Below are positions 6,462 to 60,108 of a stretch of DNA of 64,000 bases, piece after piece (within the stretch, counting starts at the first letter, position 1; each line of letters opens with the position of its first letter). The notes under the pieces were generated by a model. It ran no database searches. It saw only the letters and a program-made list of their open reading frames with translations, and had not been told where the DNA came from. A program made the translations under genes and the position numbers. This stretch comes from Minisyncoccota bacterium (lineage in GTDB: Bacteria; Patescibacteriota; Minisyncoccia; Phycocordibacterales; UBA9973): contig JARLIG010000009.1 of assembly GCA_031291825.1 (NCBI GenBank), forward strand, positions 65,281 through 129,280. Direction: 5' to 3'.

Positions 6462-6506
6462 TGATTTTGCGAAATCATGTCGCGCAACCGTCCATTTAGC
6501 GCGACC
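6462..6506 (+). repeat. conserved intergenic motif (copy 1): TGATTTTGCGAAATCATGTCGCGC-loop-GCGCGAC
   Basis: Near-identical copies at 18990-19031 and, in inverted orientation, at 60064-60108. Contains the palindrome TGATTT-TGCG-AAATCA plus a GTCGCG...CGCGAC hairpin with a variable loop. Confidence 0.7.
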
Positions 6507-6521
6507 TTATTAATAATAATG

Positions 6522-6773
6522 TTAACTTTTTCGACTTTTCTTTTTTTTGCCAAAAAGAAATTTAAAGAAAATATTTTCTCTCATTTCACTCAACAACTCT
6601 TTGGTTGTGTCTCCGATGTTGTTTATATCTTTCTCAAACTTTTCCATAATTCTGGAAAAAGCTCCGGCCGCGCGAATTAAATAAATCAACAGGACCGCTG
6701 TTAAAAACCACAAAACTAGAAATCCAACCGAAGAGATGAAAAAGAAAACTTGTGATTGTAGAAGTGTATCCAT
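6522..6773 (-). CDS. small membrane protein (possible YtxH/DUF948-like)
   Basis: 83-aa ORF with one TM then a charged helical tail (MEKFEKDINNIGDTTKELLSEMREN). Confidence 0.3.
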   Translation of the reverse strand: MDTLLQSQVFFFISSVGFLVLWFLTAVLLIYLIRAAGAFSRIMEKFEKDINNIGDTTKELLSEMRENIFFKFLFGKKKKSRKS

Positions 6774-6810
6774 GGGTGTATTGTACTCTGTTTAGTTATA
6801 TAATTCAAAC

Positions 6811-9006
6811 ATGGAACTCGCCGATAAATTAGAAACAAAATTTCGTTTGGACATAAACCAGAAAAAAGCCTTGCAACGGCTGAAGATTTTTTCAGTGGCA
6901 GATTTACTATTTCACTTTCCTACCCGCTATAGTGACATGAGCGAGATAAAGAACATTGCCGAGCTAACGTCAGGAGATATGGCAACGGTTTATGGAAAAA
7001 TTTCAAAATTAAAAACCAAAAAGGCTTTTCGTTCAGGTCGGCCAATGGGTGAAGGCGAGATTGAAGACTTGTCAGGAAAAATAAAAATAACTTGGTTTAA
7101 CCAACCATACCTAGCCAAGATGATTCATGACGGTGAAAGTGTAAAATTAACAGGCAAAGTCACGCAAGGCAAAAATGGTATTTATTTAGCAAACCCAGAA
7201 TCTGAAAAATTACCTTACATGCCGATTGATTCACATGATACTCTTTTTACCAAAGATAGTATTTCAAATGAGGGATTTTCTTATCCAATTTATGTAGAAA
7301 CTCGCGGGATTACCTCAAAATGGTTCTATCACGCGCTAGACAAAGTCTTTAAGGAAAAAACATTAGATACTATTGAAGACTACATTCCATCTGAAATTTT
7401 AAATAAATATCATCTGCCTACATTAAAAACCGCGCTCATTTGGATTCATAAACCAAAAAATAAAAACGACGCCGAGTCAGCTAGAAAAAGATTCGCCTTT
7501 GAAGAAGTATTTTGTATTCAGTTGGAACGTCAGCACGACAAGATGGAATTCCGAAAGAATAAATCTTTTCAAATTAAACCAACCGAAGAAGATGTTAAAG
7601 AATTTTTACAAAGATTTCCCTTTGAACCAACTAATTCGCAAAAAAAATCCATTGAAACAATTTTGGCAGACATGGCAAGAAACTTTCCAATGTCTCGCCT
7701 CTTGGAAGGAGACGTTGGCTCCGGCAAAACTGCAGTGGCTGCGACCGCGGCTTACGTGGCAGTGCAACAACGACCGGAAGATAAGAATGGTAAAATACAA
7801 ACTTTTGGCAATTTACAAGTGGGCTATATGGCGCCGACAGAAATATTGGCCACCCAACACTTTGAATCTTTCATCCAATATTTTAGACATCTACCAATCA
7901 ACATCGGGCTCATTACTGGCAGTGGTTGCCGTAAATTCCCAGCAAAAACAATCGGCCCCGCCAAGGACGGGGTAAATTGGACCACTATTTCCCGTGCGCA
8001 ACTTTTAAAATGGGTCGCAAGTGGTGAAATTCCAATTTTAATCGGCACTCATGCTCTGATTCAAAAAACTGTTAAATTTAAAAATTTAGCTTTAGTGGTA
8101 ATAGATGAACAACACCGTTTCGGCACTGCTCAAAGAAGAAAACTGGTCCGCAAGGATAATATTGCCCCACACCTCCTTTCGATGACAGCTACACCCATTC
8201 CCCGCACACTCGCGCTAACCATCTATGGCGATTTGGATTTGTCTCTATTAAGTGAAATGCCTAAGGGAAGAAAAGAAATTATTACCGAAATAATTACTCA
8301 GAATAAAAGGCTGGAGACTTATGAGAAAATTCGCGCCGAGCTTCAAAATGGCCGACAGCTTTATGTCATCTGTCCGAGAATTTTTGAAGCTGATGAAGAA
8401 GCAACATCTACTCAACTTGAACTGAAATCTGTCACCTCTGAAGCTAAACGTTTAAAGAAAGAAGTTTTTCCAGAATATGAAATTGGAATTTTGCACAGCA
8501 AAATGAGCAAGGAGAAGAAAGAGCGTGTGATGGAAGATTTTACTTCAGGAAAAATAAATATTTTATGCGCCACGTCAGTGGTGGAAGTCGGAGTGAATGT
8601 ACCAAACGCCACCATCATCATCATCGAAGGTGCAGAACGTTTTGGACTCGCTCAACTGCATCAACTGCGCGGACGAGTCATCCGTAGTTCACACCAAGCT
8701 TATTGTTATATTTTTGCCGATGCCAAAAGTGAAAAGACGATTGCCAGATTAAAAGCTCTAAAGACTGCCAAGAATGGTTTTGAGTTAGCGGAGTTAGATT
8801 TGACCCTACGTGGCGCCGGAGAGCTCGGAGGCACGAAGCAATGGGGCATCACCGACCTCGGAATGGAAGCAATTAAAAATATAAAAATGGTGGAAGCCGC
8901 TCGCACTGAAGCAGTCGCTTTGATAGAAAAAGACCCAGAGCTTTTAAAATACCCTTTGCTAAAAGCTAAGGTAAAACAAAAGACATCTGAATTCCATTTC
9001 GAATAA
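6811..9006 (+). CDS. recG: ATP-dependent DNA helicase RecG
   Basis: Wedge domain followed by DEAH helicase motifs (GDVGSGKT, DEQHRFG, SMTATPIPRT, HQLRGRV); -10 TATAAT sits 6 nt before the ATG. Confidence 0.9.
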   Translation: MELADKLETKFRLDINQKKALQRLKIFSVADLLFHFPTRYSDMSEIKNIAELTSGDMATVYGKISKLKTKKAFRSGRPMGEGEIEDLSGKIKITWFNQPYLAKMIHDGESVKLTGKVTQGKNGIYLANPESEKLPYMPIDSHDTLFTKDSISNEGFSYPIYVETRGITSKWFYHALDKVFKEKTLDTIEDYIPSEILNKYHLPTLKTALIWIHKPKNKNDAESARKRFAFEEVFCIQLERQHDKMEFRKNKSFQIKPTEEDVKEFLQRFPFEPTNSQKKSIETILADMARNFPMSRLLEGDVGSGKTAVAATAAYVAVQQRPEDKNGKIQTFGNLQVGYMAPTEILATQHFESFIQYFRHLPINIGLITGSGCRKFPAKTIGPAKDGVNWTTISRAQLLKWVASGEIPILIGTHALIQKTVKFKNLALVVIDEQHRFGTAQRRKLVRKDNIAPHLLSMTATPIPRTLALTIYGDLDLSLLSEMPKGRKEIITEIITQNKRLETYEKIRAELQNGRQLYVICPRIFEADEEATSTQLELKSVTSEAKRLKKEVFPEYEIGILHSKMSKEKKERVMEDFTSGKINILCATSVVEVGVNVPNATIIIIEGAERFGLAQLHQLRGRVIRSSHQAYCYIFADAKSEKTIARLKALKTAKNGFELAELDLTLRGAGELGGTKQWGITDLGMEAIKNIKMVEAARTEAVALIEKDPELLKYPLLKAKVKQKTSEFHFE

Positions 9007-9007
9007 T

Positions 9008-9565
9008 CTATTTATAGTTAGGTTTAATTTCTTCTGCACCTTCAATATGGCTAGAAATTCTAGCTAGGGCATACAGCAAACTGGAAAGACGATTTAGATA
9101 AGTCATGGTCTCTGCACTGACAACAACTTTGCCTTCTTCTTTCACCGCCACCACTCGTCTTTCTGCGCGGCGGGAGAGTGTACGAGCGACATCAAAAAGT
9201 GCTCCCTCTTCCGTCGCTCCGCTTAGAAAAAAACTTTTGATTGGCGGCAAAACTTTTTCAATTTCATCAACAATACTTTCAGCTTTGGTTATTTTATCTG
9301 CAGTAATGCTTAGCGTAGAGCCAGCCACTTCCGCTTGCACGATAAATAAATTCTGTTGAATATCTAAAACAACGTCTGAAAAACTATTTGCTCCGAGAGC
9401 TGTTTTAAAAATCATTCCTGCTGTTTTCGCGCGGACTAAACCCAAAAAAGAATTGGTTTCATCGAGGGAACCAAGCGCTTCCGCCACAGAAGAACTCTTG
9501 GAAATGCGTTGGTCGCACCCAAAAGTCTTCGTTGTACCACCATCCCCTTTTCGTGTGTAAAGCAT
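9008..9565 (-). CDS. pduO: ATP:cob(I)alamin adenosyltransferase, PduO-type
   Basis: MLYTRKGDGGTTKTFG...LGSLDETNSFLGL PduO/MMAB N-terminal signature; directly downstream of nrdJ. Confidence 0.8.
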   Translation of the reverse strand: MLYTRKGDGGTTKTFGCDQRISKSSSVAEALGSLDETNSFLGLVRAKTAGMIFKTALGANSFSDVVLDIQQNLFIVQAEVAGSTLSITADKITKAESIVDEIEKVLPPIKSFFLSGATEEGALFDVARTLSRRAERRVVAVKEEGKVVVSAETMTYLNRLSSLLYALARISSHIEGAEEIKPNYK

Positions 9566-9572
9566 CGTTTAA

Positions 9573-11873
9573 CTATATTTCGCAAACCCCAGAAACACAA
9601 GCAAGTTCCTTGGCTCCGACAGTATTGTCGGTAGCTTCGTATTGAGAAAGCTTAGAAAAATCAATCTTACCAATGGCCTTTTTGCGCTTTTCGTATTCTT
9701 CTTTACTGATAGTTTCATATGGAGCCAATTTATAAACATGGTCAGATCGAGGCAAGAAAGACATACCGCCGACGTAATCCCAGTTTTCATAAACAAAGTT
9801 TCCAACGGCCAACCATTCATCTGGACCAACATAAATAGTCGCGGATGGATTGTGTTCCACAAAGTGTTGTTTTAATCTCTTCCATTCTTTCATCAAATCC
9901 AAGGCAGAGACTTCGTCTTTGAAGATTGCTCCCTCTGGAGCTTTAACTGGAAATTCTAAAACAAAAGTAGTTGCAGTTTCTGGAGACTGTCCAACTTCCG
10001 GCACGCAAGGCACTCCTTGATCTCGAGCCATCTGAAGCAATGTGTCAGTGTGTGAAATGCGAACACGACGAATAAAGTATGGAGCATACCAAGGATGCAT
10101 ACCACTTCCTACTCCGAGAAGCTGTCCCGAATTTCCGTGCGGCTTTACGCAAGTGATAGCGGTCGATTGATTGATACCAAAACGCTTAGCATATTTTTTA
10201 TTTGTTTCAATTGCATCAAGTCTCAAAGTATCCAAAACTTTATCATCTCGGATAATTGGATTGTCATAGTATCCGGTCAAAGAAACACCGAGCAATCTTT
10301 CTGCGTCACAATTTTCTTTCCATTTCTTAGAAAGATAACCAAAGTTCGTCAAAGTTGATTGATAAGTTCCGAGCAAGGTCGCTAATTCCATTTTTTTCTT
10401 TAAGGTAGCAACCGTATCTTTCGGACGAATCACAATACTGGTCAAATTACAAAATTGTTTGGAGCGTAGGTAAATTTCTCCGCAAGGATTCAAACCAATT
10501 TGTTTTTCGTCTTTGATAGCTGCCCATCTTCGCGCAGGTAACTGTTTCTCTAATCCCCCACGATTGAAAATTCCTCTCTCTCCAGAACGAGACTTCACTA
10601 AAGCTGTCCATTCACTTAGAAATTCTTCCGCTGATGGTTTAGTGTCATAAACTGCAGAATTGTTTGCCATCGCTCTTTGTCCTTCAGTTAGATAAAATTG
10701 TCCTTTCTTCGCATCACGCATTTCGGTGTCTTCCAATTCAGAAAGAGAAATGAGTGCACTGCGTCGTACTCCACCAGCCACGACAATCATACCAATCTGG
10801 CAGATCAAGTCATGCATATCAAGATTTGAAAGACGACGACCTTGCTTAGATAAAATTTTTCTTTTCGCAAACTCCACTAAATCAATGAGCGGTTGCGGAC
10901 CTGAGGCTTTTCCGCCAGCTGTCTCTAATCTTGCTCCAGCTGGCCTAATCATAGAGTAATCAAACTTTACGTCCTTTCCATCAAACCAAGCGTTTAATCC
11001 CAACACAAAAGCATCTGCCCAACCTTCTTTACTGTCTTTGACTACGTGTACGGCAGGCTTTTCATGACCTTGCTTCTTTATCTGAGGAAATTGTTGAACA
11101 TTTTCCGATTCAACGGCGAAACCAAGCCCTGCGCCACACATTGAAACATACATTATTTCTCCCAAGTCTTGCGTGCAGGTAGGAGCGATGTAGGAACAAT
11201 TGTAAGCCCAGACATTTGAATTGCGACAAGCCTTACCGGAAGACCACAAGAGGCGCATCGATGGACAGATATCCTGATTTAAAATTGCTTCGCGAACTTC
11301 GGCATATTCTTTGGCCGTCAATTTGTCTCCAAGATTTTCTTTCATATAAGCCATGTAGCGGTCAACAGTTTCTATCCAAGTCTCGCGACGACCCAACTCT
11401 GGAATCCATCGTGAATAAAATTGATAGAAAATATATTCGGAGTAAGGACTAGAAAAATATTTACTCGACTCTTCAACAGCTAAACGCACCGCTTCTGACA
11501 CCGGACCAAATTCTTTACGGAGTTCTGAACGCTTGTTTCGGTAAAGAATATATTTTTTTGCTGTCTCGGAAAAACCACCTTTCATTAATTCTTTTTCCAC
11601 TAAGTCTTGAACAACTTCCACGGTTGGCAAAAATTTTGCTCCTTTCACCTCACTGACTAATTTACTTTGCAAATCGTGCAAACTTTTCAAAACACCATTA
11701 GCAACAATTTGAGCTTCCTTCTCTCCTCCTTCACTCGAAGCTTCGAAGGCTTTGAAGGATGCGCGAATGATTCTCTCTAAATCAAAAGGAACTACTTCTC
11801 CAGTGCGGCGACGAATTGATTTTATTTTTGATGATGCACTTTTTGAAATTTTTTCAGTTGTTTTTGTTTTCAT
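9573..11873 (-). CDS. nrdJ: adenosylcobalamin-dependent (class II) ribonucleotide reductase
   Basis: 766 aa with N-terminal ATP-cone (VVPFDLERIIRA) and the NrdJ catalytic core (NPCGEI active-site Cys loop). Confidence 0.85.
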   Translation of the reverse strand: MKTKTTEKISKSASSKIKSIRRRTGEVVPFDLERIIRASFKAFEASSEGGEKEAQIVANGVLKSLHDLQSKLVSEVKGAKFLPTVEVVQDLVEKELMKGGFSETAKKYILYRNKRSELRKEFGPVSEAVRLAVEESSKYFSSPYSEYIFYQFYSRWIPELGRRETWIETVDRYMAYMKENLGDKLTAKEYAEVREAILNQDICPSMRLLWSSGKACRNSNVWAYNCSYIAPTCTQDLGEIMYVSMCGAGLGFAVESENVQQFPQIKKQGHEKPAVHVVKDSKEGWADAFVLGLNAWFDGKDVKFDYSMIRPAGARLETAGGKASGPQPLIDLVEFAKRKILSKQGRRLSNLDMHDLICQIGMIVVAGGVRRSALISLSELEDTEMRDAKKGQFYLTEGQRAMANNSAVYDTKPSAEEFLSEWTALVKSRSGERGIFNRGGLEKQLPARRWAAIKDEKQIGLNPCGEIYLRSKQFCNLTSIVIRPKDTVATLKKKMELATLLGTYQSTLTNFGYLSKKWKENCDAERLLGVSLTGYYDNPIIRDDKVLDTLRLDAIETNKKYAKRFGINQSTAITCVKPHGNSGQLLGVGSGMHPWYAPYFIRRVRISHTDTLLQMARDQGVPCVPEVGQSPETATTFVLEFPVKAPEGAIFKDEVSALDLMKEWKRLKQHFVEHNPSATIYVGPDEWLAVGNFVYENWDYVGGMSFLPRSDHVYKLAPYETISKEEYEKRKKAIGKIDFSKLSQYEATDNTVGAKELACVSGVCEI

Positions 11874-11878
11874 ATAAT

Positions 11879-18302: not shown

Positions 18303-18908
18303 CTAAGCAGATGTTTTTGTAACTTTATACTCAACCTTATCTTTTTTTACCATAACAATGATTTCTTCTAATAGTTTTTTGGGGTCCTTGCCTTTGACAA
18401 TCTTTGAATTAGGACGGTGGCCTTTGGCAAGAATTTCTTCCAGCTCTGCCCCCATATCCCATGGGCCTTCAAATATACCTAGAGGTTTTGCATCTTCAAA
18501 AGCGACAGTGAACTCGTGAATCGTACCGATACGTCCACAGCCACAGATGACTGCATCTGCACTACGAGTGAGAAGTAGGTCACGTCCAGGATAGCCAAAG
18601 CCAGTGTAAATAATCAAATCCATATAATCAAGCGGAAGCTTGTAGACTTCCACATGTTCTCGTTCAGATGCGGCTGGAGATATGCCAATAGAAATTCCAC
18701 CGGCTTCTTTCGCTCCCATCGCTGTCCAAAAAGGAAAACCCGTCGTAGCGCCAGTTACCAACACTGCTCCTTGGCGGGCAATTTCTCGTCCGAGTTCTTT
18801 TGCTAGATCGAGTGCACCGAGACCGCAAGCACTAGTCTCTGCCGCACCAGAAACACAAATTTTTATTTGATTGTGTCCATGTTTATCGTTTAGTTCTTTT
18901 AAATCCAT
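18303..18908 (-). CDS. LOG/TIGR00725-like Rossmann-fold nucleotide-binding protein
   Basis: ICVSGAAETSACGLG...VTGATTGFPFW...ICGCGRIGTIHE resembles LOG-family GGGxGxMG/PGGxGTxxE; TATAAT lies 6 nt before the ATG. Confidence 0.45.
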   Translation of the reverse strand: MDLKELNDKHGHNQIKICVSGAAETSACGLGALDLAKELGREIARQGAVLVTGATTGFPFWTAMGAKEAGGISIGISPAASEREHVEVYKLPLDYMDLIIYTGFGYPGRDLLLTRSADAVICGCGRIGTIHEFTVAFEDAKPLGIFEGPWDMGAELEEILAKGHRPNSKIVKGKDPKKLLEEIIVMVKKDKVEYKVTKTSA

Positions 18909-18942
18909 TCGAGCATTATAGCACCAAAAAAGAAGATTCCAA

Positions 18943-19054
18943 AATTTTAGAGACTTGCGCAGTGCGACGGCACGAGCAGGAAGAATTTTTGATTTTGCGA
19001 AATCATGTCGCGTAAGTCCTACTAACGCGACTAAAATATCTGTGCTCTAAAATT
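18943..19054 (+). repeat. composite intergenic repeat: ~75-nt element X with 10-nt terminal inverted repeats (AATTTTAGAG...CTCTAAAATT) that contains a copy of the 45-nt GCGAAATCATGTCGCG motif
   Basis: Second copy of X at 25262-25338 lacks the inner motif and has compensatory changes in both arms (AATTTTGGAG...CTCCAAAATT); shared core CTTGCGCAG...CGAGCAGGAAGAATTTTT...ATATCTGTGCTC. Confidence 0.65.
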
Positions 19055-19075
19055 TGGGAATCTTCTTTTAATTTT

Positions 19076-28956: not shown

Positions 28957-29032
28957 TTAATTTAATTACGAATTATTAATTACGGATTACGAATTGAATT
29001 TTAATTTGAAATTCTTAATTCGTAATTTCTAA
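28957..29032. repeat. AT-rich intergenic palindrome built from AATTACGAATT / AATTCGTAATT units (rpsE|rplO spacer)
   Basis: The same AATTCGTAATT(CGTAATT) unit recurs in the rplR|rpsE spacer 29616-29646 and the rpmC|rpsQ spacer 34323-34355. Confidence 0.6.
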
Positions 29033-29614: not shown

Positions 29615-29643
29615 GTTCTTAATTCGTAATTCGTAATTTTTAA

Positions 29644-34322: not shown

Positions 34323-34353
34323 AAATTCGTAATTCGTAATTTTTAATCCGTAA

Positions 34354-34548
34354 TTATTTTTTATTTAATTCGGTCATTGCTCTGGCAATTTGTTTTTTTA
34401 AAATGGTGGACTCTTTTACATTCTTTGATCTTGAACCTTCCGCTTTAAAATGAATCACACGCAAAGCTTCCCTTAAGGACACTAATTCCTTTTTGAGTTC
34501 TGCCTCTTTCATCTCTTTAAAATTTACTTTGGTATTTTTCTTTGCCAT
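34354..34548 (-). CDS. rpmC: 50S ribosomal protein L29
   Basis: 64 aa, [18 protein letters not shown]29 pattern. Confidence 0.8.
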
Positions 34549-36152: not shown

Positions 36153-36500
36153 CTATTTTTTCTTAGCATCGTCAGCGGCTGCAGTCGCACCTTTGGCGGC
36201 GGTTATTTCTGCTTCCTTTTTCTTCTGTTCGAGTTCTTTCTGCATCTTTCCTCCGTGCTTGATAAATTTCTTAGTTGGAGAAAATTCACCCAATCGGTGG
36301 CCCACCATATCTTCGGTGACTAAAACTTCGATGTGAACCTTGCCGTTATAAACGCCAAAAGTAAAACCGAGCATTTCTGGAGAAATAACAGCAGCTCTTT
36401 TCCAAGTCTTTACCATAGGAGTATTGAGCGGGTTTTTACCAGCAATCTTTGATAAGAGCCTCTCGTCAACGTTTAATCCTTTTTTAATACTTCGTGTCAT
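36153..36500 (-). CDS. rpsS: 30S ribosomal protein S19 (with Lys/Ala-rich C-terminal extension)
   Basis: MTRSIKKGLNVDERLLSKI...GHRLGEFSPTKKF canonical S19 core. Confidence 0.85.
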   Translation of the reverse strand: MTRSIKKGLNVDERLLSKIAGKNPLNTPMVKTWKRAAVISPEMLGFTFGVYNGKVHIEVLVTEDMVGHRLGEFSPTKKFIKHGGKMQKELEQKKKEAEITAAKGATAAADDAKKK

Positions 36501-36525
36501 AATAAAAAGCTCCTAACGAGCTTGG

Positions 36526-36557
36526 ATTTATACTAACAAATAAGGAAAAATTGTCAA
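36526..36557 (-). promoter_or_regulatory. strong sigma70-type promoter (TTGACA...TATAAAT) plus SD AGGAG driving rpsS immediately downstream of the island
   Basis: Gene-sense GTTGACAATTTTTCCTTATTTGTTAGTATAAATCCAAGCTCGTTAGGAGCTTTTTATTATG. Confidence 0.5.
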
Positions 36558-36629
36558 CTAGATTTTTAAAAACCATTATGTTAAAAAGCTCAAATCAAAA
36601 AACTACTTTTTTGGTTTAAATAAAAATAC

Positions 36630-36657
36630 GGGACTAGCAAAATTAGCTGCTAGTCCC
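36630..36657 (-). terminator. intrinsic terminator GGGACTAGCAGCTAATTTTGCTAGTCCC plus U-run (minus strand)
   Basis: Perfect 8-bp stem followed by GTATTTTTATTT in gene sense; preceded by a second GC-rich hairpin at ~36790-36830. Confidence 0.55.
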
Positions 36658-36844
36658 GTTGCTTTGGATGTGTAGAAGGATTCTCAGTTCTTCTACCGCA
36701 TGAGATAGCTCTACGGTGGAGACCAATCCAAAAGAACTATCCTGCTCGAAATATAGTATACAGAAAAAAATAAAGCAAATAAAAATCGCCCAGAAATACT
36801 GATGGCCGGCTCCGCGTGTTACGCGAAACCGGCCGTGTTGATGG

Positions 36845-37093
36845 TTACTTTTTGGTTCCTGCGATAACGCACAGGACCCCGAATCCAATCCCTATTGTCG
36901 CGATAATTCCGCGCGAAAGTAAGAGTTGCGTGCCAACGTGATGGTCAGGTCCCATCTGAATGAATACGTCGGCGAAGTGTGTGCCGGCGATGAGCGAGAC
37001 GATTCCAACGTACGGGCAAACTTTGTCCCAAACCCTATCCCAAAAATCGGTCTGGTTCTCGTTGGCGTTTTCGTCCAAAAATTCAAGAGGCAT
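36845..37093 (-). CDS. island sORF g6: small two-TM membrane protein (82 aa)
   Basis: SD GGAG 8 nt before ATG (ACGGAGAACAAGATG); MPLEFLDENANENQTDFWDRVWDKVCPYVGIVSLIAGTHF...GIIATIGIGFGVLCVIAGTKK. Confidence 0.35.
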   Translation of the reverse strand: MPLEFLDENANENQTDFWDRVWDKVCPYVGIVSLIAGTHFADVFIQMGPDHHVGTQLLLSRGIIATIGIGFGVLCVIAGTKK

Positions 37094-37142
37094 CTTGTTC
37101 TCCGTGTTTCTCGCGCACATCTGTACGCGTGTTGATTGCCGG

Positions 37143-37331
37143 TTAGTCGTGGCGATGACGTGATAAATACCATACACCAAAGGGAAGAACGATCGCAGAA
37201 ATCACTCGTAACCACATCTCGGAGCTAGGTCCAAAAACCAGAATTAACCCGGCAACGATGACTAACGTGAAAACGATCCCCGCTTGCGCTCCCTCATTCG
37301 TAGTATCTACATCTTGCCGCTGAGTTTGCAT
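37143..37331 (-). CDS. island sORF g5: small membrane protein (62 aa)
   Basis: SD AAGGAG 8 nt before ATG; own promoter TTGACT-N17-TATGTT (plus 37353-37381); two hydrophobic helices. Confidence 0.4.
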   Translation of the reverse strand: MQTQRQDVDTTNEGAQAGIVFTLVIVAGLILVFGPSSEMWLRVISAIVLPFGVWYLSRHRHD

Positions 37332-37393
37332 GGAATGTACTCCTTCCCCTATAACATATCACATAATATCCTAAAAGTCAAGTAAAAATTGGG

Positions 37394-37432
37394 CAAAAAA
37401 AACGGGCTTCCGGTGTGAACACAGAAGCCCGT
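37394..37432 (-). terminator. canonical intrinsic terminator ACGGGCTTCTGTGTTCACACCGGAAGCCCGUUUUUUUU (minus strand)
   Basis: 9-bp GC stem followed by eight T in gene sense. Confidence 0.6.
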
Positions 37433-37439
37433 TGGGAGA

Positions 37440-37560
37440 ATGGTGCAAATGGCGCAATCCATCCCCTGATAGGTGGTATCAAGGGAGCCAATGGGGCTAC
37501 AACCATCAAGGCATAGTCATTGAAGGGAGCCACCTCCTCAATACCACCGTCCGATAATAT
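37440..37560 (-). ncRNA. candidate small structured RNA (~160 nt transcript ending at the 37394-37432 terminator)
   Basis: No SD-led ORF. Long-range pairing GGUGGUAU...AUACCACC enclosing repeated GGGAGCCA boxes; between a promoter-like box (TTGTAT-N16-TATATT) and a canonical terminator. Confidence 0.25.
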
Positions 37561-37617
37561 AACATACTTATAAAAAAATACAAGTCCAGATAATAAAATT
37601 TGGGTAAACAAGGTAAT

Positions 37618-37646
37618 GGGGTTCGCCGACAGAATCGACGAACCCC
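37618..37646. repeat. GC-rich hairpin GGGGTTCGCCGACAGAATCGACGAACCCC (copy A); identical copy B at 37992-38020
   Basis: 29-nt direct repeat, 12-bp stem; each directly follows the stop codon of a minus-strand sORF. Confidence 0.7.
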
Positions 37647-37657
37647 ATTTTGAAGCC

Positions 37658-37837
37658 TTAGTAGCAGCCTCGATTGTCGTAGCGTATGAGCGCAGGACGC
37701 TCACGCGGAGCACGCACTGCAAGTTTGACGGCTTCGTACCCATCATCTGAGGAGTGAGCAACGAATGGCTCACCGCGACGGTAAGTAGAAGCGGAAACAA
37801 CGGTAAGTGTTTGCGGTACTTTTGTGTTCTTCTTCAT
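37658..37837 (-). CDS. island sORF g3 (59 aa, hydrophilic)
   Basis: SD AGGA 7 nt before ATG (CAGAGGACTTGAGATG); MKKNTKVPQTLTVVSASTYRRGEPFVAHSSDDGYEAVKLAVRAPRERPALIRYDNRGCY; stop abuts hairpin A. Confidence 0.35.
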   Translation of the reverse strand: MKKNTKVPQTLTVVSASTYRRGEPFVAHSSDDGYEAVKLAVRAPRERPALIRYDNRGCY

Positions 37838-37942
37838 CTCAAGTCCTCTGTGTGGATAGGTTGGCTTCCCATCCTCTGCTGTGAACATTGACATTGTGCT
37901 CTGCTTACATTGGACAAACAAAGCAGGAACTTCTTATCTTTA

Positions 37943-37970
37943 TTTATACCACTTAAAATAATTAACACAA
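37943..37970 (-). promoter_or_regulatory. island promoter box B: TTGTGTTAATTATTTTAAGTGGTATAAAT (minus strand)
   Basis: TTGTGT-N16-TATAAA; same box at 38311-38336 (TTGTGTTATTTTAATTAAGTGTTATAAC) and 38586-38612 (TTGTGTTATTTTGAAAAAGTGGTATAAA). Confidence 0.5.
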
Positions 37971-38034
37971 GGGGAAAGTAAACATGAAGATGGGGTTCGC
38001 CGACAGAATCGACGAACCCCAAATTTGATATCTG

Positions 38035-38244
38035 CTACACCCGATACATCAATCTGTCTCCCCTCTCTGCTGACAGAGGAGACGCGACCACCTTCGGCTC
38101 AACACCACGCCGTGCGTCGTCGAATGCCTTCGACAAACCTCCAGGCTGTTCTCCTTCTTGCCGAGATTGGTTGTATTTCAAAAGAGACTGCTTTGAAGAC
38201 TGGTTGCTCTGATGTCTTGATCCTGAAGCGCTTGATTTGCTCAT
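38035..38244 (-). CDS. island sORF g2 (69 aa, Ser/Gln-rich hydrophilic)
   Basis: SD AAGGAG 6 nt before ATG; MSKSSASGSRHQSNQSSKQSLLKYNQSRQEGEQPGG...; stop abuts hairpin B. Confidence 0.4.
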   Translation of the reverse strand: MSKSSASGSRHQSNQSSKQSLLKYNQSRQEGEQPGGLSKAFDDARRGVEPKVVASPLSAERGDRLMYRV

Positions 38245-38310
38245 CGTTTCTCCTTGAGGGGTTGTGTTTGTTAAACAACTTAAACTAAAAAGGTGCATAT
38301 CTTTTTTAGT

Positions 38311-38336
38311 TATAACACTTAATTAAAATAACACAA
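38311..38336 (-). promoter_or_regulatory. island promoter box C
   Basis: TTGTGTTATTTTAATTAAGTGTTATAAC ~60 nt upstream of the g2 SD. Confidence 0.45.
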
Positions 38337-38367
38337 GGTAAAATTTTTAAATTGAGTAGACATAGCG

Positions 38368-38393
38368 AGGGCGCCGAGTTGGTCTCGGCGCCC
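38368..38393. repeat. GC-rich perfect hairpin GGGCGCCGAG-TTGGTC-CTCGGCGCCC
   Basis: 10-bp perfect stem directly after the g1 stop. Confidence 0.6.
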
Positions 38394-38407
38394 TTGAATC
38401 TTAAATC

Positions 38408-38545
38408 TCATTCTTTGTCGTCGAAACGCCGACGGCGGCGCGGCTGACGGTTGCGAGGACGGTTTGGCAACTGCTGCGCGTTACGGGTAACCGCTCTGGT
38501 AACCCACTTCGGAGCTGATAGCTCCGCACGACGAGTTCTCGTCAT
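38408..38545 (-). CDS. island sORF g1 (45 aa, extremely Arg-rich)
   Basis: Hand-translated: SD GGAG 7 nt before ATG; MTRTRRAELSAPKWVTRAVTRNAQQLPNRPRNRQPRRRRRFDDKE-TGA. Not in the ORF track (shorter than 60 aa). Confidence 0.35.
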   Translation of the reverse strand: MTRTRRAELSAPKWVTRAVTRNAQQLPNRPRNRQPRRRRRFDDKE

Positions 38546-38585
38546 CTTTTTTCTCCAAATGGAAAAATGAACATCTATGGAGATA

Positions 38586-38612
38586 TTTATACCACTTTTT
38601 CAAAATAACACA
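38586..38612 (-). promoter_or_regulatory. island promoter box D
   Basis: TTGTGTTATTTTGAAAAAGTGGTATAAA ~40 nt upstream of the g1 ATG. Confidence 0.45.
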
Positions 38613-38633
38613 ATAGCAAAAGTGTATAAAGCA

Positions 38634-38674
38634 AAAGACGTCGGACATCTGTTGCTACAGGTGTCCGACGTCTT
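38634..38674. repeat. REP-like perfect palindrome AAGACGTCGGACA-loop-TGTCCGACGTCTT immediately after the rplB stop
   Basis: 13-bp perfect stem; member of the GACGTyGGACA family. Confidence 0.6.
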
Positions 38675-38695
38675 TTGCTTAAGTATTTTTATTTT

Positions 38696-39535
38696 TTATT
38701 TATTCTTCCCAGTCTTACGGCGAGAAACGATAAACACATTAGAGTATTTCTTTGGACCACGAGTTTTGCGTCCACCAGTAACCTTACCCCACATGGTCTT
38801 AGGACGTTTGGTTCCGCGACCTTGGCGGCCCTCACCTCCTCCGTATGGATGGTCAACTGGATTCATCGCCGTGCCTCGAACAGTTGGACGAATTCCTTTC
38901 CAACGACTGCGTCCAGCTTTACCATAATTTTCCAAATGATGTTCTTCATTAGAAACAGTACCGACACACGCCCAACATTTTTCATTTATTTTTCTGATTT
39001 CCGTTGAAGGCATTTTCAAGTTTGTATATCCATCAGCATTTGCGACAACTTGTGCAAAGATTCCTGCAGAACGTCCAATCTTCGCACCACCCATTGGCTT
39101 AATTTCAACATTATAAACAAATGTTCCAACTGGAATAAACTGCAAAGGTAAACGATTGCCTGGCTTCAATTCTGCTTTCTCGGAAACGATAAATGAATCA
39201 CCAGGCTTTACAGACTTTGGCAAAACCACATATCTTTTTTCTCCGTCCTTGTAAACAGCAAGTCCAATGAAGGCTGAACGATTTGGGTCATATTCAACAG
39301 ATGTAATTTTTGCAGGAATATCTTTTTTGTTGTAAATAAAATCAACTTCGCGGAAAAGACGCTTATGACCAGAACCTTTGTGTCGCATCGTGATACGACC
39401 TTGACTGTTGCGGCCGACAGCGCGCTTGAAACCATAAGTGAGCGACTTGGTTGGTGTCGTCTTCGTCAAGACACCACGGTAAGTCACGTTGGTCATCTGT
39501 CTTCTTGATTTACTTGTTGGTTTGTATGTTTTCAT
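38696..39535 (-). CDS. rplB: 50S ribosomal protein L2
   Basis: 279 aa, canonical L2 (GRNSQGRITMRHKGSGHKR, MNPVDHPYGGGEG). Confidence 0.9.
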   Translation of the reverse strand: MKTYKPTSKSRRQMTNVTYRGVLTKTTPTKSLTYGFKRAVGRNSQGRITMRHKGSGHKRLFREVDFIYNKKDIPAKITSVEYDPNRSAFIGLAVYKDGEKRYVVLPKSVKPGDSFIVSEKAELKPGNRLPLQFIPVGTFVYNVEIKPMGGAKIGRSAGIFAQVVANADGYTNLKMPSTEIRKINEKCWACVGTVSNEEHHLENYGKAGRSRWKGIRPTVRGTAMNPVDHPYGGGEGRQGRGTKRPKTMWGKVTGGRKTRGPKKYSNVFIVSRRKTGKNK

Positions 39536-48357: not shown

Positions 48358-48385
48358 AATTTTAATAGGCTCTAGGCATTAGGCA

Positions 48386-48814
48386 CTAGGCTTTAGCTTT
48401 TCCCTCTCGGGGCTTTTTGTTACCATATAAAGATCTACCTTGTCGGCGCTTCTCGACTCCTTGAGTATCAAGTACTCCGCGTACGATGTGATATCTTACT
48501 CCAATCAAGTCTTTCACACGTCCTCCGCGTAGCATGACCACTGAGTGTTCTTGCAAGTTGTGTCCTTCCCCTGGGATATAAGCAGTGACTTCCATGCCGT
48601 TCGTCAAACGTACGCGAGCGATTTTTCGGAGAGCAGAGTTTGGCTTTTTAGGAGTGGTTGTAGAAACTTTCACGCAAACACCTCGTTTGAAAGGAGCTGG
48701 AAAAAAGACTGGTCTGTTTTTCAGAACATTAAATCCACGAGCCAAGGCGACAGTTTTCGTCTTGGAATGGACCTTCACTCTATTTTTCTTTATTAATTGG
48801 TTTATTGTTGGCAT
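48386..48814 (-). CDS. rpsL: 30S ribosomal protein S12
   Basis: [14 protein letters not shown]...[10 protein letters not shown] canonical S12. Confidence 0.9.
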
Positions 48815-48896
48815 AATCTAAAACAGGCGTTAGGCTCTAGGCATTAGCTAAAGCCTAAAACCCTAAAGCCTAGCGCCTAGCTTACTATAAAAAATA

Positions 48897-49517
48897 TTAA
48901 ATTGCAAGACCTGTCAAAAGATGGAAGAGAAAGGCTAAGATTGGATATAAATAACCAGAGAAGAAAACAATAAATACAAGTAACAAAAGTAGGGAGTATT
49001 GTTCGTGACGAAATATTTTTAAGGAAATAGAATCAGGGAAAAAAGAAAAAAGTATTTTAGAACCATCGAGAGGTGGGATAGGAACCAAGTTAAAAATCCC
49101 CAAAGCTAAATTCACGATAACAATTGCCGAAGTTATAGTATAAAAACCAGGCTGTAAATTAAGTGGAGCAGTTAGGCGAAGAATAATTCCAAAGATAATC
49201 GCAATGACAAAATTTGCGCAGACTCCAGCCGCCGCGACTGCAATGGTCCCCCATTTCCTATTACTTAAATTATTTGGATTATAAGGAACTGGTTTAGCCC
49301 AGCCAAACAAAAATGGAGCATGAGTCAAAACCAAAACCGCAGGCAAAAGAATTGAACCAAAAATGTCTAGGTGTGAAATTGGATTTAAAGTCAGACGCCC
49401 AGCATCTCGCGCCGTATCATCACCAAAAGATTCCGCCATGAAACCGTGCGAGACTTCGTGAATCACAATCGACATGATAAGTATCGCGATATAAAAAATT
49501 GCATTGGTTGCGTCCAT
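48897..49517 (-). CDS. M50-family site-2 protease (small SpoIVFB-like zinc metalloprotease)
   Basis: HEVSHGFMA (HExxH in a TM helix), LNPISHLD, multiple TM helices; start taken at MDATNAIFY to avoid overlap with rpmB. Confidence 0.6.
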   Translation of the reverse strand: MDATNAIFYIAILIMSIVIHEVSHGFMAESFGDDTARDAGRLTLNPISHLDIFGSILLPAVLVLTHAPFLFGWAKPVPYNPNNLSNRKWGTIAVAAAGVCANFVIAIIFGIILRLTAPLNLQPGFYTITSAIVIVNLALGIFNLVPIPPLDGSKILFSFFPDSISLKIFRHEQYSLLLLLVFIVFFSGYLYPILAFLFHLLTGLAI

Positions 49518-52080: not shown

Positions 52081-52083
52081 AGT

Positions 52084-54491: not shown

Positions 54492-54534
54492 CAAATTTTC
54501 TATTTTTAGAAAATTAAAGTTTTGTTTTCTACAT

Positions 54535-54606: not shown

Positions 54607-54616
54607 CAATACAATT

Positions 54617-54922: not shown

Positions 54923-54943
54923 TAGTATAGTATAATTGTTTTT

Positions 54944-56769: not shown

Positions 56770-56771
56770 AA

Positions 56772-57785
56772 ATGGAAATCAAGAAAAATTACAATTTGTC
56801 TAAACTAAATACTTTTGGCATAGACGTAAATACTGACTTTTTTGCGGAAATAAAATCCGAAAATGACATTGAGGAGCTTTTTAGTTCACCAGAATTTAAG
56901 CACTATGAAAAAATCTTTCTGGGTGGTGGAAGTAATATTTTGTTTACGAAAGATTTTCACGGCATTGTCATCTTAAATAAACTAAAAGGTATAGAAATCA
57001 CTGAAGAGAGCAACGAGAGTGTTTCTGTACGAGCGATGGGCGGAGAGATCTGGAATGACCTTGTGCTATTTGCCGTAAATCATGGCTATTGGGGTATCGA
57101 AAATTTGTCTCTAGTTCCTGGCACCGTCGGCGCGGCACCAATGCAAAACATTGGGGCTTACGGTTCAGAAATAAAAGAAACACTTTTAAATGTAGAAACT
57201 TTTGAAGTAGCAACTGGAAAGAAGAAAATTTTTAACAATGAAGAGTGTGAACTTGGGTATCGCGATAGTATTTTTAAAAATAAAGTAAAAGGTAAATATT
57301 TTATTTCCGCAATAACTTTAAAATTGAGTAAGAAAGAAAATAAAAATGTAACTTATCGCGCGCTAAAGGAATATTTGGAAAATAATAAAATTGAAATACA
57401 TAATTCAAAAGATATTAGTGAAGCAGTAGCCTCTATTCGCAATAGTAAACTCCCCGACCCAAAAATCTTAGGCAATGCTGGAAGTTTTTTCAAAAATGTT
57501 TTTATAAAAAAAGATGAACTGCAAAAATTATTACTGGAATATCCAGATATTCCATCCTTCGAGGAGAAAGGTTTAATGAAAATTCCAGCTGGCTGGCTCA
57601 TCGAGCAGTGTGGATGGAAAGGACGTAAGCTTGGAAATGTCGGTGTCCACGAAAAGCAGGCTTTAGTTTTAGTAAATTACGGAAATGCAACTGGTTCTGA
57701 AGTTTTCAATCTAGCAAATCAAATAATTAAATCAGTTAGGAATAAATTTGGACTTGAACTTATACCAGAAGTAAATTTGATTTAG
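56772..57785 (+). CDS. murB: UDP-N-acetylenolpyruvoylglucosamine reductase
   Basis: FAD-binding GGGSNILF, MurB C-terminal domain; start at MEIKKNY to avoid overlap with the NRAMP gene. Confidence 0.8.
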   Translation: MEIKKNYNLSKLNTFGIDVNTDFFAEIKSENDIEELFSSPEFKHYEKIFLGGGSNILFTKDFHGIVILNKLKGIEITEESNESVSVRAMGGEIWNDLVLFAVNHGYWGIENLSLVPGTVGAAPMQNIGAYGSEIKETLLNVETFEVATGKKKIFNNEECELGYRDSIFKNKVKGKYFISAITLKLSKKENKNVTYRALKEYLENNKIEIHNSKDISEAVASIRNSKLPDPKILGNAGSFFKNVFIKKDELQKLLLEYPDIPSFEEKGLMKIPAGWLIEQCGWKGRKLGNVGVHEKQALVLVNYGNATGSEVFNLANQIIKSVRNKFGLELIPEVNLI

Positions 57786-57835
57786 TGCTTTTTTAGCAGT
57801 ATACTTTCCTTATTAATATTAAGTTATAAATAACT

Positions 57836-58357
57836 ATGGACAAGGAAAATAATAAAAATATGAATATTGTTTTGGCAGTGATAATCTGTTTAGCAGTAGT
57901 GGGGATTCTGGTTTTTATCAGCATAAAAAATAAAGTAAATATGGCTTCAAACAATAATGTCACAAATAATCAACCTAGTGGCACCGATAATACTATTAAC
58001 ATTCCAACCACCCCATCAACTCCAACCCCTGCTCCCACCGAAAACACCACAGCCGGCGACGTAGCAAAGACTGGAGATACTGTTTCGATGAACTACACCG
58101 GAAAATTAGCAGACGGAACTGTTTTTGACTCAAACATAGACCCAAAATTTGGTCACGTGCAGCCATTTGTTTTTACTCTTGGCGCGGGGCAAGTCATTCC
58201 TGGATGGGATACTGGAATCGTCGGAATGAAAATTGGAGAAACAAAGACTCTAGTAATACCTCCAGCGGATGCCTATGGAGCAAATGGCTATCCTCCAACA
58301 ATTCCCCCAAATGCTACTTTGACTTTCGAAGTAACGCTTTTAGCAATTAAGAAGTAA
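57836..58357 (+). CDS. membrane-anchored FKBP-type peptidyl-prolyl isomerase
   Basis: N-terminal TM, FKBP domain YTGKLADGTVFDSN...PGWDTGIVGMKIGE. Confidence 0.8.
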   Translation: MDKENNKNMNIVLAVIICLAVVGILVFISIKNKVNMASNNNVTNNQPSGTDNTINIPTTPSTPTPAPTENTTAGDVAKTGDTVSMNYTGKLADGTVFDSNIDPKFGHVQPFVFTLGAGQVIPGWDTGIVGMKIGETKTLVIPPADAYGANGYPPTIPPNATLTFEVTLLAIKK

Positions 58358-58387
58358 CTTTTCACGCGAATAGCGTGAACAAAACAT

Positions 58388-59218
58388 ATGGATCTATTAA
58401 AATGCGAGAAATCTAGTCTCTTGAAAGCTCTTTTTGTCTTAGCTCTAATTTTGTGTCTGTATTTTGCTATCCAAACAATTTCTGAAATTAAAAATTATAA
58501 CGATGTTCCAGCCGACGTAACAGTAAACACCATGAGCTTTGACGGAGAAGGAGATGTTTCGGCTGTACCAAATTTGGCAACCATTAGCTTTACGCTCGTA
58601 GGAGATGCTGCAAACATGCAAGATGCGCAGACCAAAGTCACAGCCAAGGAAACAGCTGTATTAAATTTTTTAAACACTGACGGTATAGCTAAAGGTGACA
58701 TACAAACACAAGACTATAGTTCATATCCTCAATATCAAAATCAGAATGCTGTTTGTCCACCTACGCCAATACCTATGTCTGGAGGAATTGTTTCTAATAT
58801 TGCTGTGTATTGTCCTCCTTCAAAACAAATTTTAACTGGATATGAAACTTCTGAGAATATTTCAGTAAAAGTTCGCGACCTCACAAAGGTTGGAGCTGTT
58901 GTTGCGGGTATTGGTACAATTGGTGTCTCAAATATAAGTGGTCCAAATTATTCCATTGAGAATCAAGACGCACTACAAGAACAAGCTCGTAAAATTGCGA
59001 TAACTAACGCTGAAGCAAAAGCGCAAACTCTTGCAAAAGACCTAGGTATCAATCTTGTCCGTATTGTAAATTTCTCTGAAGACAATGGCTCACCTATCAT
59101 GTACCCTAAGGCTATGGCAATGACTGTATCCAGCACCGCCAACGCTTCCGCACCAGCATTACCTACTGGAGAAAATAAAATTACCTCAAACGTCACAATA
59201 ACTTACGAAATAAGGTAG
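58388..59218 (+). CDS. SIMPL-domain (DUF541) protein
   Basis: N-terminal TM, TMSFDGEGDVSAVPNLATISFTL SIMPL start motif, ~276 aa. Confidence 0.6.
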   Translation: MDLLKCEKSSLLKALFVLALILCLYFAIQTISEIKNYNDVPADVTVNTMSFDGEGDVSAVPNLATISFTLVGDAANMQDAQTKVTAKETAVLNFLNTDGIAKGDIQTQDYSSYPQYQNQNAVCPPTPIPMSGGIVSNIAVYCPPSKQILTGYETSENISVKVRDLTKVGAVVAGIGTIGVSNISGPNYSIENQDALQEQARKIAITNAEAKAQTLAKDLGINLVRIVNFSEDNGSPIMYPKAMAMTVSSTANASAPALPTGENKITSNVTITYEIR

Positions 59219-59304
59219 AGTTGACTATTTAGGGAAAAAGAGTAGTATTAAAGAAGCCCTCCCGAGGGGCTTTTTTAAAAGCCTAAAAATTTTGAAAGAA
59301 ATCA

Positions 59305-59490
59305 ATGTCAAAAATTACTGAATATTTTAAAGAAACCAAAGCGGAATTAAAGCATGTTATCTGGCCATCCAGAAAACAAACCTTTTACTACACCCTAATT
59401 GTTATTATTTTGTCGGTTATCATCGCGTATTACTTGGGTGTTTTTGATTTTATCTTTTCACAAGGATTACAGAAAATAATAACACCTTAA
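59305..59490 (+). CDS. secE: preprotein translocase subunit SecE
   Basis: 61 aa with ELKHVIWPSRKQT...single TM; precedes nusG. Confidence 0.75.
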   Translation: MSKITEYFKETKAELKHVIWPSRKQTFYYTLIVIILSVIIAYYLGVFDFIFSQGLQKIITP

Positions 59491-59494
59491 ATAT

Positions 59495-60040
59495 ATGTCT
59501 AAACAAGAAACAGAAGGAATTAGAAATTGGTATGCCATACACACCTATGCTGGATACGAAAACGTTGTCTTGCGTAATTTGCGTCAGCGTATTGATTCTC
59601 TTGGCATGAATGACAAAATTTTTAATGTTATTGTTCCAGTTGAGAAAAAAATAAAAATAAAAGCTGGCAAGCGCGTAGAAGTGGAAGAAAAGATTTATCC
59701 AGGCTATGTTTTAGTGGATATGGTTGTGACGGATGATTCTTGGTATGTAGTACGTAACACACCGAGAGTCACTGGCTTCGTTGGTGCTGGAGTCAACCCT
59801 GTACCCTTAAAAAAAGAAGAGGTGGACTATCTCTTCAAGAAAATGGACACAGGCACTCTCAAGCACAATATCGATATGGCTATCGGAGAAACAGTTTTGA
59901 TTAACGATGGACCATTTAAGGATTTGGAGGGCAAGATAAATTCAGTAGACCAAGACCGAGGTAAAGTTAAAGTTCTAGTTTCGATGTTCGGTCGCGAAAC
60001 TCCAGTAGAACTAGACTTCTTGCAAGTAAAGAAGATTTAA
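59495..60040 (+). CDS. nusG: transcription antiterminator NusG
   Basis: NGN domain WYAIHTYAGYEN, KOW domain at C-terminus. Confidence 0.9.
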   Translation: MSKQETEGIRNWYAIHTYAGYENVVLRNLRQRIDSLGMNDKIFNVIVPVEKKIKIKAGKRVEVEEKIYPGYVLVDMVVTDDSWYVVRNTPRVTGFVGAGVNPVPLKKEEVDYLFKKMDTGTLKHNIDMAIGETVLINDGPFKDLEGKINSVDQDRGKVKVLVSMFGRETPVELDFLQVKKI

Positions 60041-60063
60041 GGTAGATTAAGAAATATATAAGA

Positions 60064-60108
60064 GTCGCGCTAAAAGGACGATTGCGCGACATAATTTCGC
60101 AAAATTAA
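60064..60108 (-). repeat. conserved intergenic motif (copy 3, inverted) ending 4 nt before the rplK ATG
   Basis: Reverse complement ATTAATTTTGCGAAATTATGTCGCGCAATCGTCCTTTTAGCGCGAC is near-identical to 6462-6506. Confidence 0.7.

Follow-up and report, generated by a model that had tools for sequence, protein, structure and literature searches.

A lineage-wide family of double-hairpin elements abutting start codons in Parcubacteria

Correia elements (CREE/NEMIS) of Neisseria and similar miniature inverted-repeat transposable elements (MITEs) are mobile, are co-transcribed with their neighbors and change neighbor expression via RNA hairpins; they are ~100 to 155 bp long and have terminal inverted repeats, a TA target duplication, insertion in either orientation, sigma-70 hexamers and RNase III sites. 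Rickettsia palindromic elements (RPEs) measure 100 to 150 bp, are in many cases intragenic and have no fixed relation to start codons. Stabilizers at the 5' end of transcripts include the ompA and ermC/aprE leaders, and chloroplast footprints of the PPR10 type block RNase J. Repetitive extragenic palindromes (REPs), or tagged palindromic repeats (GTAG and CGTC super-families), consist of a single 20- to 40-bp palindrome with a 6- to 13-bp stem, a 2- to 5-nt loop and an unpaired tag (Di Nocera et al. 2013, PMC3733652). They lie mostly near the 3' ends of upstream open reading frames (ORFs), where the neighboring genes are unidirectional or convergent, are found in either orientation and frequently form inverted dimers (PMC3733652). 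In this study, we examined a double-hairpin element present in three copies in a 64,000-nt stretch of DNA from a Minisyncoccota bacterium (GenBank assembly GCA_031291825.1, contig JARLIG010000009.1, positions 65,281 to 129,280; here called the window) and found it to be one member of a lineage-wide family of 42- to 45-nt cassettes.

A family of double-hairpin cassettes

Read in gene sense, the element consists of GTCGCGY, an 11- to 15-nt loop, RCGCGAC, a linker A, TGATTT, CGCA and AAATCA. Hairpin 1 has a 7- to 8-bp GC stem and a loop ending in GGACGrTT, and hairpin 2 is a weak 6-bp AU stem of the form TGATTT-loop-AAATCA. An exact search of one genome per species (scan 1) returned 88 loci, of which ~63 belong to Patescibacteria (Nomura-, Kaiser- and Zambryskibacteria, Paceibacterota and metagenome-assembled genomes labeled Saccharibacteria); the remainder were chance matches within genes of other phyla and carried no hairpin 1. 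A scan of metagenomes, anchored on hairpin 1 alone with hairpin 2 left free to vary (scan 2), gave 97 loci, ~92 of them genuine. Within these loci, fetched as 8- to 15-kb pieces around the copies, a covariance model built from the scan 1 set found more diverged copies. The two scans and the model together yielded ~150 distinct copies, all from the Parcubacteria/Paceibacteria group of Patescibacteria. Viral contigs contained no match, so no phage carriage was seen, and no copy was found before a non-coding RNA gene. Rfam gave no match at gathering threshold for the window and 18 loci, and searches at E-value threshold around window copies 2 and 3 returned only noise. A literature search for the element sequence found no paper describing it, and the literature on promoters, leaderless mRNAs and Shine-Dalgarno use in these bacteria supplied background only.

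Both hairpins are supported by covariation. In the model-fitted alignments, 98.7 to 98.9% of stem cells are paired, double-sided changes occur in 11 of 13 pairs, and all six pairs of hairpin 2 vary in a compensatory way. None of 500 shuffles reached these covariation values, and slid controls showed at most three double-changed pairs. Stem variants include GTCGCAC/GTGCGAC, GTCTCGC/GCGAGAC and GCCGTCCC/GGGACGGC for hairpin 1 and GATTC/GAATC, GACTT/AAGTC and CGATGTC/GACATCG for hairpin 2, the loop of which measures 4 to 7 nt. Most copies differ very little in sequence, also in the 3' half of the hairpin 1 loop (GGACGrTT). At orthologous nusG-rplK sites the element is 89 to 98% identical, compared to 76 to 81% for the rplK coding sequence and 39 to 52% for its third codon positions, which argues that the sequence itself is read and not the fold only.

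The position of the element is defined by the start codon. For 123 copies, a downstream gene was called; 20 of them end directly at its ATG, and 55, 8 and 12 end 1, 2 and 3 nt before it, respectively. Distances of 0 to 3 nt to the ATG account for 96 of 123 copies (78%), even where the intergenic spacer measures 100 to 300 nt. The sequences between element and ATG are A/T-rich and nearly free of G. The distance to the upstream stop codon varies from -1 to >300 nt, and this variable distance, together with the fixed one to the ATG, ties the element to the start codon. Intercistronic copies (27) often begin 1 to 7 nt past the upstream stop and occur within conserved operons, such as between rplW and rplB, rplB and rpsS, or rpsG and fusA. 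Four copies, including copy 2 of the window, follow a stop codon and precede a terminator. About 148 of 150 copies have the same orientation as the flanking genes. The sole antisense case (locus L097, 10240-10369) comprises two tandem copies 16 nt apart, one of them partly decayed, between two genes of the opposite strand; the pair adjoins a short AAGGACCGTCCTT palindrome.

Family searches identified the downstream genes as those for EF-G, EF-Ts, RRF, RpoB, the ribosomal proteins L2, L7/L12, L9, L10, L11, S7, S12, S18 and S19, SecE, SecF, AtpA, HU, ClpP and NDK. By N-terminal sequence only, EF-Tu (five loci), DnaK, RpoC, S4, S20, a pilin and many small secreted proteins were added. With covarying helices and with a strand and position that are fixed with respect to genes, the element has the features of a structured cis-acting RNA. 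Those of an intrinsic terminator, a GC stem with a 3- to 8-nt loop and a U run right behind it, are absent: the 11- to 15-nt loop is followed by AUGAUUUCG, a terminator scan found no match at the motif, and the real terminators of element-bearing genomes look different.

The three window copies share the pattern GTCGCGY-loop-RCGCGAC-A-TGATTTCGCAAAATCA, all in the sense of the flanking gene. The 23-mer TGATTTTGCGAAATCATGTCGCG matched three times in the window at up to three mismatches (0.01 expected), and a pattern search for GTCGCG-N8-20-CGCGAC found exactly three matches (0 expected); neither relaxed searches nor the covariance model revealed a fourth copy in the window. Copy 1 (6462..6505, minus strand; 77.5 bits with the covariance model) consists of hairpin 1 at 6479-6505 with a 7-bp GC stem and the 13-nt loop CTAAATGGACGGT, the linker A at 6478 and hairpin 2 at 6462-6477 (TGATTT-CGCA-AAATCA). 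Its predicted structure is that of two hairpins, with a minimum free energy (MFE) of -15.2 kcal/mol. A DUF948 gene stops 16 nt before it, and 13 nt beyond it lies the ATG (6448) of a minus-strand gene (6041..6448) for a 135-amino-acid protein (MKKVIKHKKGG...) without a Pfam hit. Copy 3 (60064..60107, plus strand; 74.4 bits) is formed by hairpin 1 at 60064-60090 and hairpin 2 at 60092-60107, which is the compensated A-T variant TAATTT-CGCA-AAATTA. It follows the nusG stop by 23 nt, precedes the ATG (60113) of rplK for ribosomal protein L11 (60113..60535, plus strand) by 5 nt and is orthologous to copies in five other loci. Copy 2 (18990..19031, minus strand; 59.5 bits) has hairpin 1 at 19007-19031, with the stem GTCGCGT/ACGCGAC and an 11-nt loop, and hairpin 2 at 18990-19005. 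A beta-CASP/RNase J-like gene ends 44 nt before it, and a LOG-like gene starts 81 nt after it. The latter has its own promoter (TTGGAA-16-TGcTATAAT; 18915..18942, minus strand) of the leaderless type, 6 nt before the ATG at 18908; copy 2 is therefore not the expression signal of the LOG-like gene but an orphan or 3'-untranslated-region (3'-UTR) copy. Two compensatory changes are found already among these three copies: the C-G at pair 7 of hairpin 1 in copies 1 and 3 is replaced by T-A in copy 2, and a G-C pair of hairpin 2 in copies 1 and 2 is A-T in copy 3.

An initial annotation of the window from its sequence had located all three copies and described the double hairpin correctly. It had also placed copies 1 and 3 upstream of the 135-codon gene, there called YtxH-like, and of rplK, as found here, although its 4-nt spacing to rplK was short by one; copy 2, by contrast, does not stand immediately upstream of the LOG-like gene as proposed. 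Its description of conserved stems around a variable loop holds for the stems, which covary, whereas the loop does not vary freely, its 3' half being nearly invariant in ~150 copies. A search for further copies and a tally of the genes behind them, as suggested there, gave many translation and transcription genes downstream. Copies mostly inside genes or randomly oriented, the outcome named there as speaking against a regulatory role, were not what emerged, since only 3 of ~150 copies are intragenic and gene sense predominates as given above.

Transcription context and turnover of the copies

The hosts are Parcubacteria/Paceibacteria with almost no use of Shine-Dalgarno (SD) sites and with most operons starting leaderless. 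An SD-like tetramer was found before only 3 of the 83 genes of the window and, in loci bearing the element, before ~10% of 947 genes. Operon-first genes of the window genome typically carry an extended -10 (TGnTAnnAT) 6 to 8 nt before the ATG. At least a dozen window genes show this arrangement, among them those with ATGs at 508, 2908, 4549, 5709, 15588, 16494, 18908, 21260, 21895, 25228, 42950 and 63950, which points to widespread leaderless mRNAs. Neither the window nor any fetched locus contains a 16S gene. At window positions 60535-61643, rplK is followed by an ATP-grasp gene (D-Ala-D-Ala ligase/RimK-like) and not by rplA, as in three further loci. A large Parcubacteria subgroup has been reported to be devoid of both anti-SD and uL1 (PMC9297842), and the missing uL1 gene after rplK is consistent with this subgroup.

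Operon-first genes bearing the element were analyzed for promoters. An extended -10 (TGnTAnnnT) was found in 9 of 27 of them, 25 to 78 nt upstream of hairpin 1; this rate equals that of genes without the element (36%), and none was found at the leaderless position when the element is present. The rpsS, rpsL and secE genes have the same conserved TTGACa-16/17-TAnnAT promoter and leader hairpin with or without the element. Since canonical sigma-70 promoters lie upstream, the element would be a transcribed leader or intercistronic RNA, inserted into a leader that was already transcribed. In the window, strong sigma-70 promoters (e.g., TTGACA-16-TAGTAT) were noted at ~36500-36565 (rpsS), ~48815-48900 (rpsL) and ~59225-59304 (secE), and the same arrangement recurs in nine other loci. 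Their predicted start site lies at the foot of a GC hairpin with a U run, 3 to 30 nt before the ATG and thus at the very 5' end of the transcript; judged from sequence, this terminator-like structure may be an attenuator or a 5' stabilizer.

For the element itself, the data support neither a promoter nor an operator. Of the functions considered in the initial annotation, that of a 5'-UTR hairpin agrees with our data, as both stems covary, copies are in gene sense and abut the ATG, and sigma-70 promoters are found upstream at variable distance. The promoter option is not supported: TTGCGC and CAAAAT are separated by 12 nt, miscounted as 17, and not by the 17±1 nt of a sigma-70 promoter; CAAAAT is too close to the ATG; a consensus scan gave no match at copies 1 and 2; and the promoters lie upstream. 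A dimeric operator is not supported either, because the TGATTT/AAATCA half-sites change in a compensatory manner within single genomes and their center varies from 4 to 7 nt. Likewise, the proposed small regulon gives way to a lineage-wide cassette that stands before dozens of housekeeping genes, inside three coding sequences and within copies of itself. Three related candidates were rejected as well. CAAAAT as a leaderless -10 would end 3 nt (mode) before the ATG, compared to 6 to 8 nt in promoters of the window genome. A fixed promoter just upstream of hairpin 1 was not apparent, as TAnnnT and TGnTAnnnT showed no positional peak. Finally, an ATG internal to the motif does not serve as start codon or for a leader peptide, being ATA, GTG or ACG in many copies and covarying with its pairing partner.

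Copies have been gained and lost. Orthologous sites before rpsL, rpsS, secE and rplK carry the element in some genomes but not in others. In seven loci, a complete element is nested in the hairpin 1 loop of another, the outer stem being kept across ~50 nt; a reading of such copies as tandem was discarded once they turned out to be nested. Other loci have duplicated hairpin 2 modules, and the elements fall into sub-families. Three copies are intragenic, in a gene for a family 4 UDG, in gatA and in the linker region of polA. All three are in frame and in sense, share a common reading frame (..ARHDFAKS..) and appear as insertions of ~12 residues relative to solved homologues. Inverted dimers were not found among the copies. 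An inverted pair in locus L148 was considered as a composite transposon and rejected: the whole 8171-nt contig is a perfect fold-back, an assembly artifact, so that its two "inverted" copies are no evidence of such a transposon.

Spacers before other start codons showed two further features. Where secE lacks the element (window 59277-59304 and the empty sites of loci L132 and L158), its leader still ends in ..AATCA right before the ATG, like the 3' end of the element. The window sequence AATTTTGAAAGAAATCA resembles a decayed hairpin 2 and may, by this likeness, be what is left of a copy that was excised or degraded. Tandem repeats of heptamers (AATTACG/TTCGTAA, TAGGCAT, CTAAAGC) fill spacers right before ribosomal-protein start codons, in the window at 28962-28995, 29616-29638, 34324-34355, 48366-48396 and 48848-48872. 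In L132, a CGAATTA repeat occupies the nusG-rplK spacer where the window has the double-hairpin element, and the two may therefore be alternative spacer modules.

Proposed role and alternative explanations

We propose, giving it about an even chance, that the element is a transcribed and portable leader cassette, anchored to the start codon, for high and SD-independent expression of those genes for which a leaderless mRNA is not an option. It would be transcribed within the mRNA, as 5' leader or between cistrons, with its 3' end 0 to 3 nt before the AUG. The stable hairpin 1 would insulate the start region and block 5'-to-3' decay, while the meltable A/U-rich hairpin 2 and the G-free spacer would provide a place to land without an SD site. 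A conserved host factor, either a ribosome component, an RNA-binding protein or an RNase, would recognize the invariant GGACG loop together with the CGCGAC-A-TGATTT core; both this factor and the molecular role, in translation, stability or processing, are inferred. New copies would arise by copy-and-paste in the fashion of miniature mobile repeats and be kept where they abut a start codon.

Several observations weigh against this proposal. The 5' ends assumed for element transcripts are those of predicted promoters. A purely structural RNA role leaves the near-perfect identity across orders (such as Kaiserbacteria and Nomurabacteria) unexplained, and a hairpin that ends only 1 to 2 nt from the AUG has to open up if the start codon is to enter the ribosome. 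Three perfect 3'-UTR copies before terminators and the three intragenic copies stand in places without a role for a translation signal. On the sense strand, 6 G·U cells compare with 10 A·C or C·A cells; without a G·U excess, the covariation fits a structure at the DNA level (single-stranded or cruciform) equally well. Folding energies of the sense and antisense strands do not discriminate between the two.

Some of the same observations suit a selfish miniature mobile repeat of REP, RPE or MITE type without host function, the hairpins of which would be seen as single-stranded DNA by a transposase and the ATG position of which would reflect insertion tolerance in compact genomes or a target preference. 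We consider this explanation unlikely, though it accommodates the filled and empty orthologous sites, the nested elements, the sub-families, the covariation restricted to Watson-Crick pairs and the in-frame copies in UDG, GatA and PolA genes; REPs, too, have been reported in replication and repair genes (PMC3733652). What it does not predict is the narrow ATG spacing despite long spacers, an orientation that is ~99% gene sense, the persistence of copies at one orthologous site with 89 to 98% identity despite saturation of synonymous positions, and the strong enrichment before translation and transcription genes. Inverted dimers and the preference of REPs for gene 3' ends are lacking, and no transposase, such as the RAYT/IS200-type tyrosine transposase associated with REPs, was identified, although no systematic search for one was made. 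A narrow spacing (mode 1 nt), as tight as that between -10 and ATG in leaderless genes of the same genomes, is also what an RNA processing signal would show. In this case, cleavage by an endonuclease at a set distance from hairpin 2 would render internal or leadered mRNAs leaderless, starting at most 3 nt from the AUG, and leaderless mRNAs are what the SD-less ribosomes of these hosts normally translate. Such a signal would be in keeping with ATG as the start codon, a largely leaderless host without SD sites, use between cistrons of ribosomal-protein operons and a sequence conservation that suits recognition by an enzyme. It is nonetheless a doubtful option in our view, as perfect copies in three essential or repair coding sequences would lead to cleavage of those mRNAs, ~20% of copies lie 4 to 31 nt from the ATG, no known RNase acts on such a shape, and hairpin 2 alone is too short as a tRNA mimic.

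Two explanations place the function of the element at the level of transcription initiation. It might be a self-contained compact promoter, possibly for a sigma factor of the extracytoplasmic function (ECF) type, with GGAC of the hairpin 1 loop as -35 and CG(C/T)A of the hairpin 2 loop as -10, giving leaderless transcripts from the ATG. With the ATG as +1, GGAC falls at ~-33 to -30 and CGCA at ~-11 to -8, a pyrimidine directly precedes the ATG in 42 of 59 cases, the ATG spacing is tight, and the element often follows terminator-like hairpins (rpsL, rpsS, secE). Yet the supposed -10 is the most variable part of the element, its distance to GGAC shifts by 3 to 4 nt with loop length, and covariation of the stems is left unexplained. 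No sigma-70 -10 is at the right place, given the 3-nt distance of CAAAAT, and the consensus scan is blank at copies 1 and 2. Canonical promoters exist upstream, empty orthologous sites work without the element, and some copies directly precede terminators. We therefore regard a compact promoter as very unlikely. An operator for a dimeric transcription factor, bound to the TGATTT-N4-AAATCA dyad and defining a regulon, would explain the dyad symmetry of hairpin 2, and a location past the promoter and ahead of the start codon would be appropriate for a repressor acting as a roadblock. It would also have to tolerate half-sites that differ within one genome (GATTT/AAATC and AATTT/AAATT in the window) and become GATTC/GAATC, GACTT/AAGTC or CGATGTC/GACATCG elsewhere around a center of 4 to 7 nt, a strictly gene-sense orientation, a second and unrelated hairpin that is always attached, and copies placed in coding sequences or nested in one another, which makes this explanation hardly tenable.

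A more far-reaching version of the leader cassette, which we put forward as a speculation with a low chance of being correct, is that it is a structured SD replacement marking internal and leadered starts in Parcubacteria without anti-SD (and uL1). The GGACG loop and the core would be read by the ribosome, a dedicated factor or an RNase. The cassette would act in one of two ways, by direct recruitment of the ribosome or through cleavage that leaves a leaderless mRNA, and it would have spread as a mobile "plug-in" entry signal. For the choice of start codons on internal cistrons in Parcubacteria without anti-SD, the element is a concrete candidate, and this candidate module directly adjoins the AUG in genes for EF-Tu, EF-G, RNA polymerase and ribosomal proteins. 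In uncultured genomes, it could be used to recognize true start codons and genes with high expression; it could also serve as a lineage marker and as an expression part for genetics in bacteria of the candidate phyla radiation (CPR). If true, it would be an unusually clear example of the domestication of a mobile repeat as an expression signal, or of such a repeat with start codons as its target.

Neighboring features and comparison with known systems

Copy 2 is surrounded by a long hairpin (18925..19070, minus strand) of ~140 nt with the arms AAAAGAAGATTCCCAAATTTTAGAG and CTCTAAAATTTTGGAATCTTCTTTT, a 26-bp closing stem followed by U6, an MFE of -55.6 kcal/mol and a z score of -5.8. It also contains a third inner hairpin, GCTCGTGCCGTCGCACTGCGC; the upstream gene probably has its terminator region here, with the element embedded in it. 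The motif TGCGCAAGTCTC recurs beside the element in two metagenome loci (L095 891-902 and L151 380-391), and the long hairpin with this motif may constitute a module of its own, a small RNA or a terminator. Elsewhere in the window, a 2.2-kb island (36501-38695, minus strand) between rplB (38696-39535) and rpsS (36153-36500) splits the S10 operon. It is absent from the relatives L032, L106 and L117, has a higher GC content (0.44) and comprises several tiny promoter-plus-terminator units as well as small ORFs with good SD sites (AAGGAGA, GGAAGGAG), in a genome otherwise without them. The island gave no Rfam hit and looks horizontally acquired.

With REPs, the element shares the nature of a short, GC-stemmed, multi-copy palindrome in transcribed intergenic DNA, some intragenic copies (notably in replication and repair genes), sub-families, filled and empty sites and a hairpin often beginning with (C)GTC. 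With regard to the CGTC tag, C precedes GTCGCG in 51% of 150 copies, which gives CGTC, whereas GTC is base-paired within hairpin 1. Unlike REPs, the element combines two unlike hairpins, one with an 11- to 15-nt loop and a conserved 3' half, and occurs as a singleton in ~99% gene sense, anchored to the 5' end of the downstream ORF. In-frame palindromic repeats in conserved protein genes of a reduced genome are reminiscent of RPEs, which can lie in coding genes without disrupting them; here, however, they account for 3 of ~150 copies, and the element mostly abuts ATGs. The terminal inverted repeats, TA duplication, either-way insertion, sigma-70 hexamers and RNase III sites of Correia elements were not seen in it.

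The likeness to 5' stabilizers and to structures that define intercistronic ends lies in a stable structure just before the cistron, which shields it from 5'-to-3' decay and frees the start region. Those systems are gene specific, not repeated, not identical across orders and not mobile. As CPR bacteria retain RNase J (PMC12641178), this likeness is relevant, and by analogy the element may have a stabilizing role. SD-independent initiation in Bacteroidetes and leaderless initiation are similar in that no functional SD pairing takes place and starts are A-rich and unstructured or 5'-terminal AUGs. While no conserved structured cassette has been described there, the Parcubacteria examined here place a discrete 44-nt module before the AUG.

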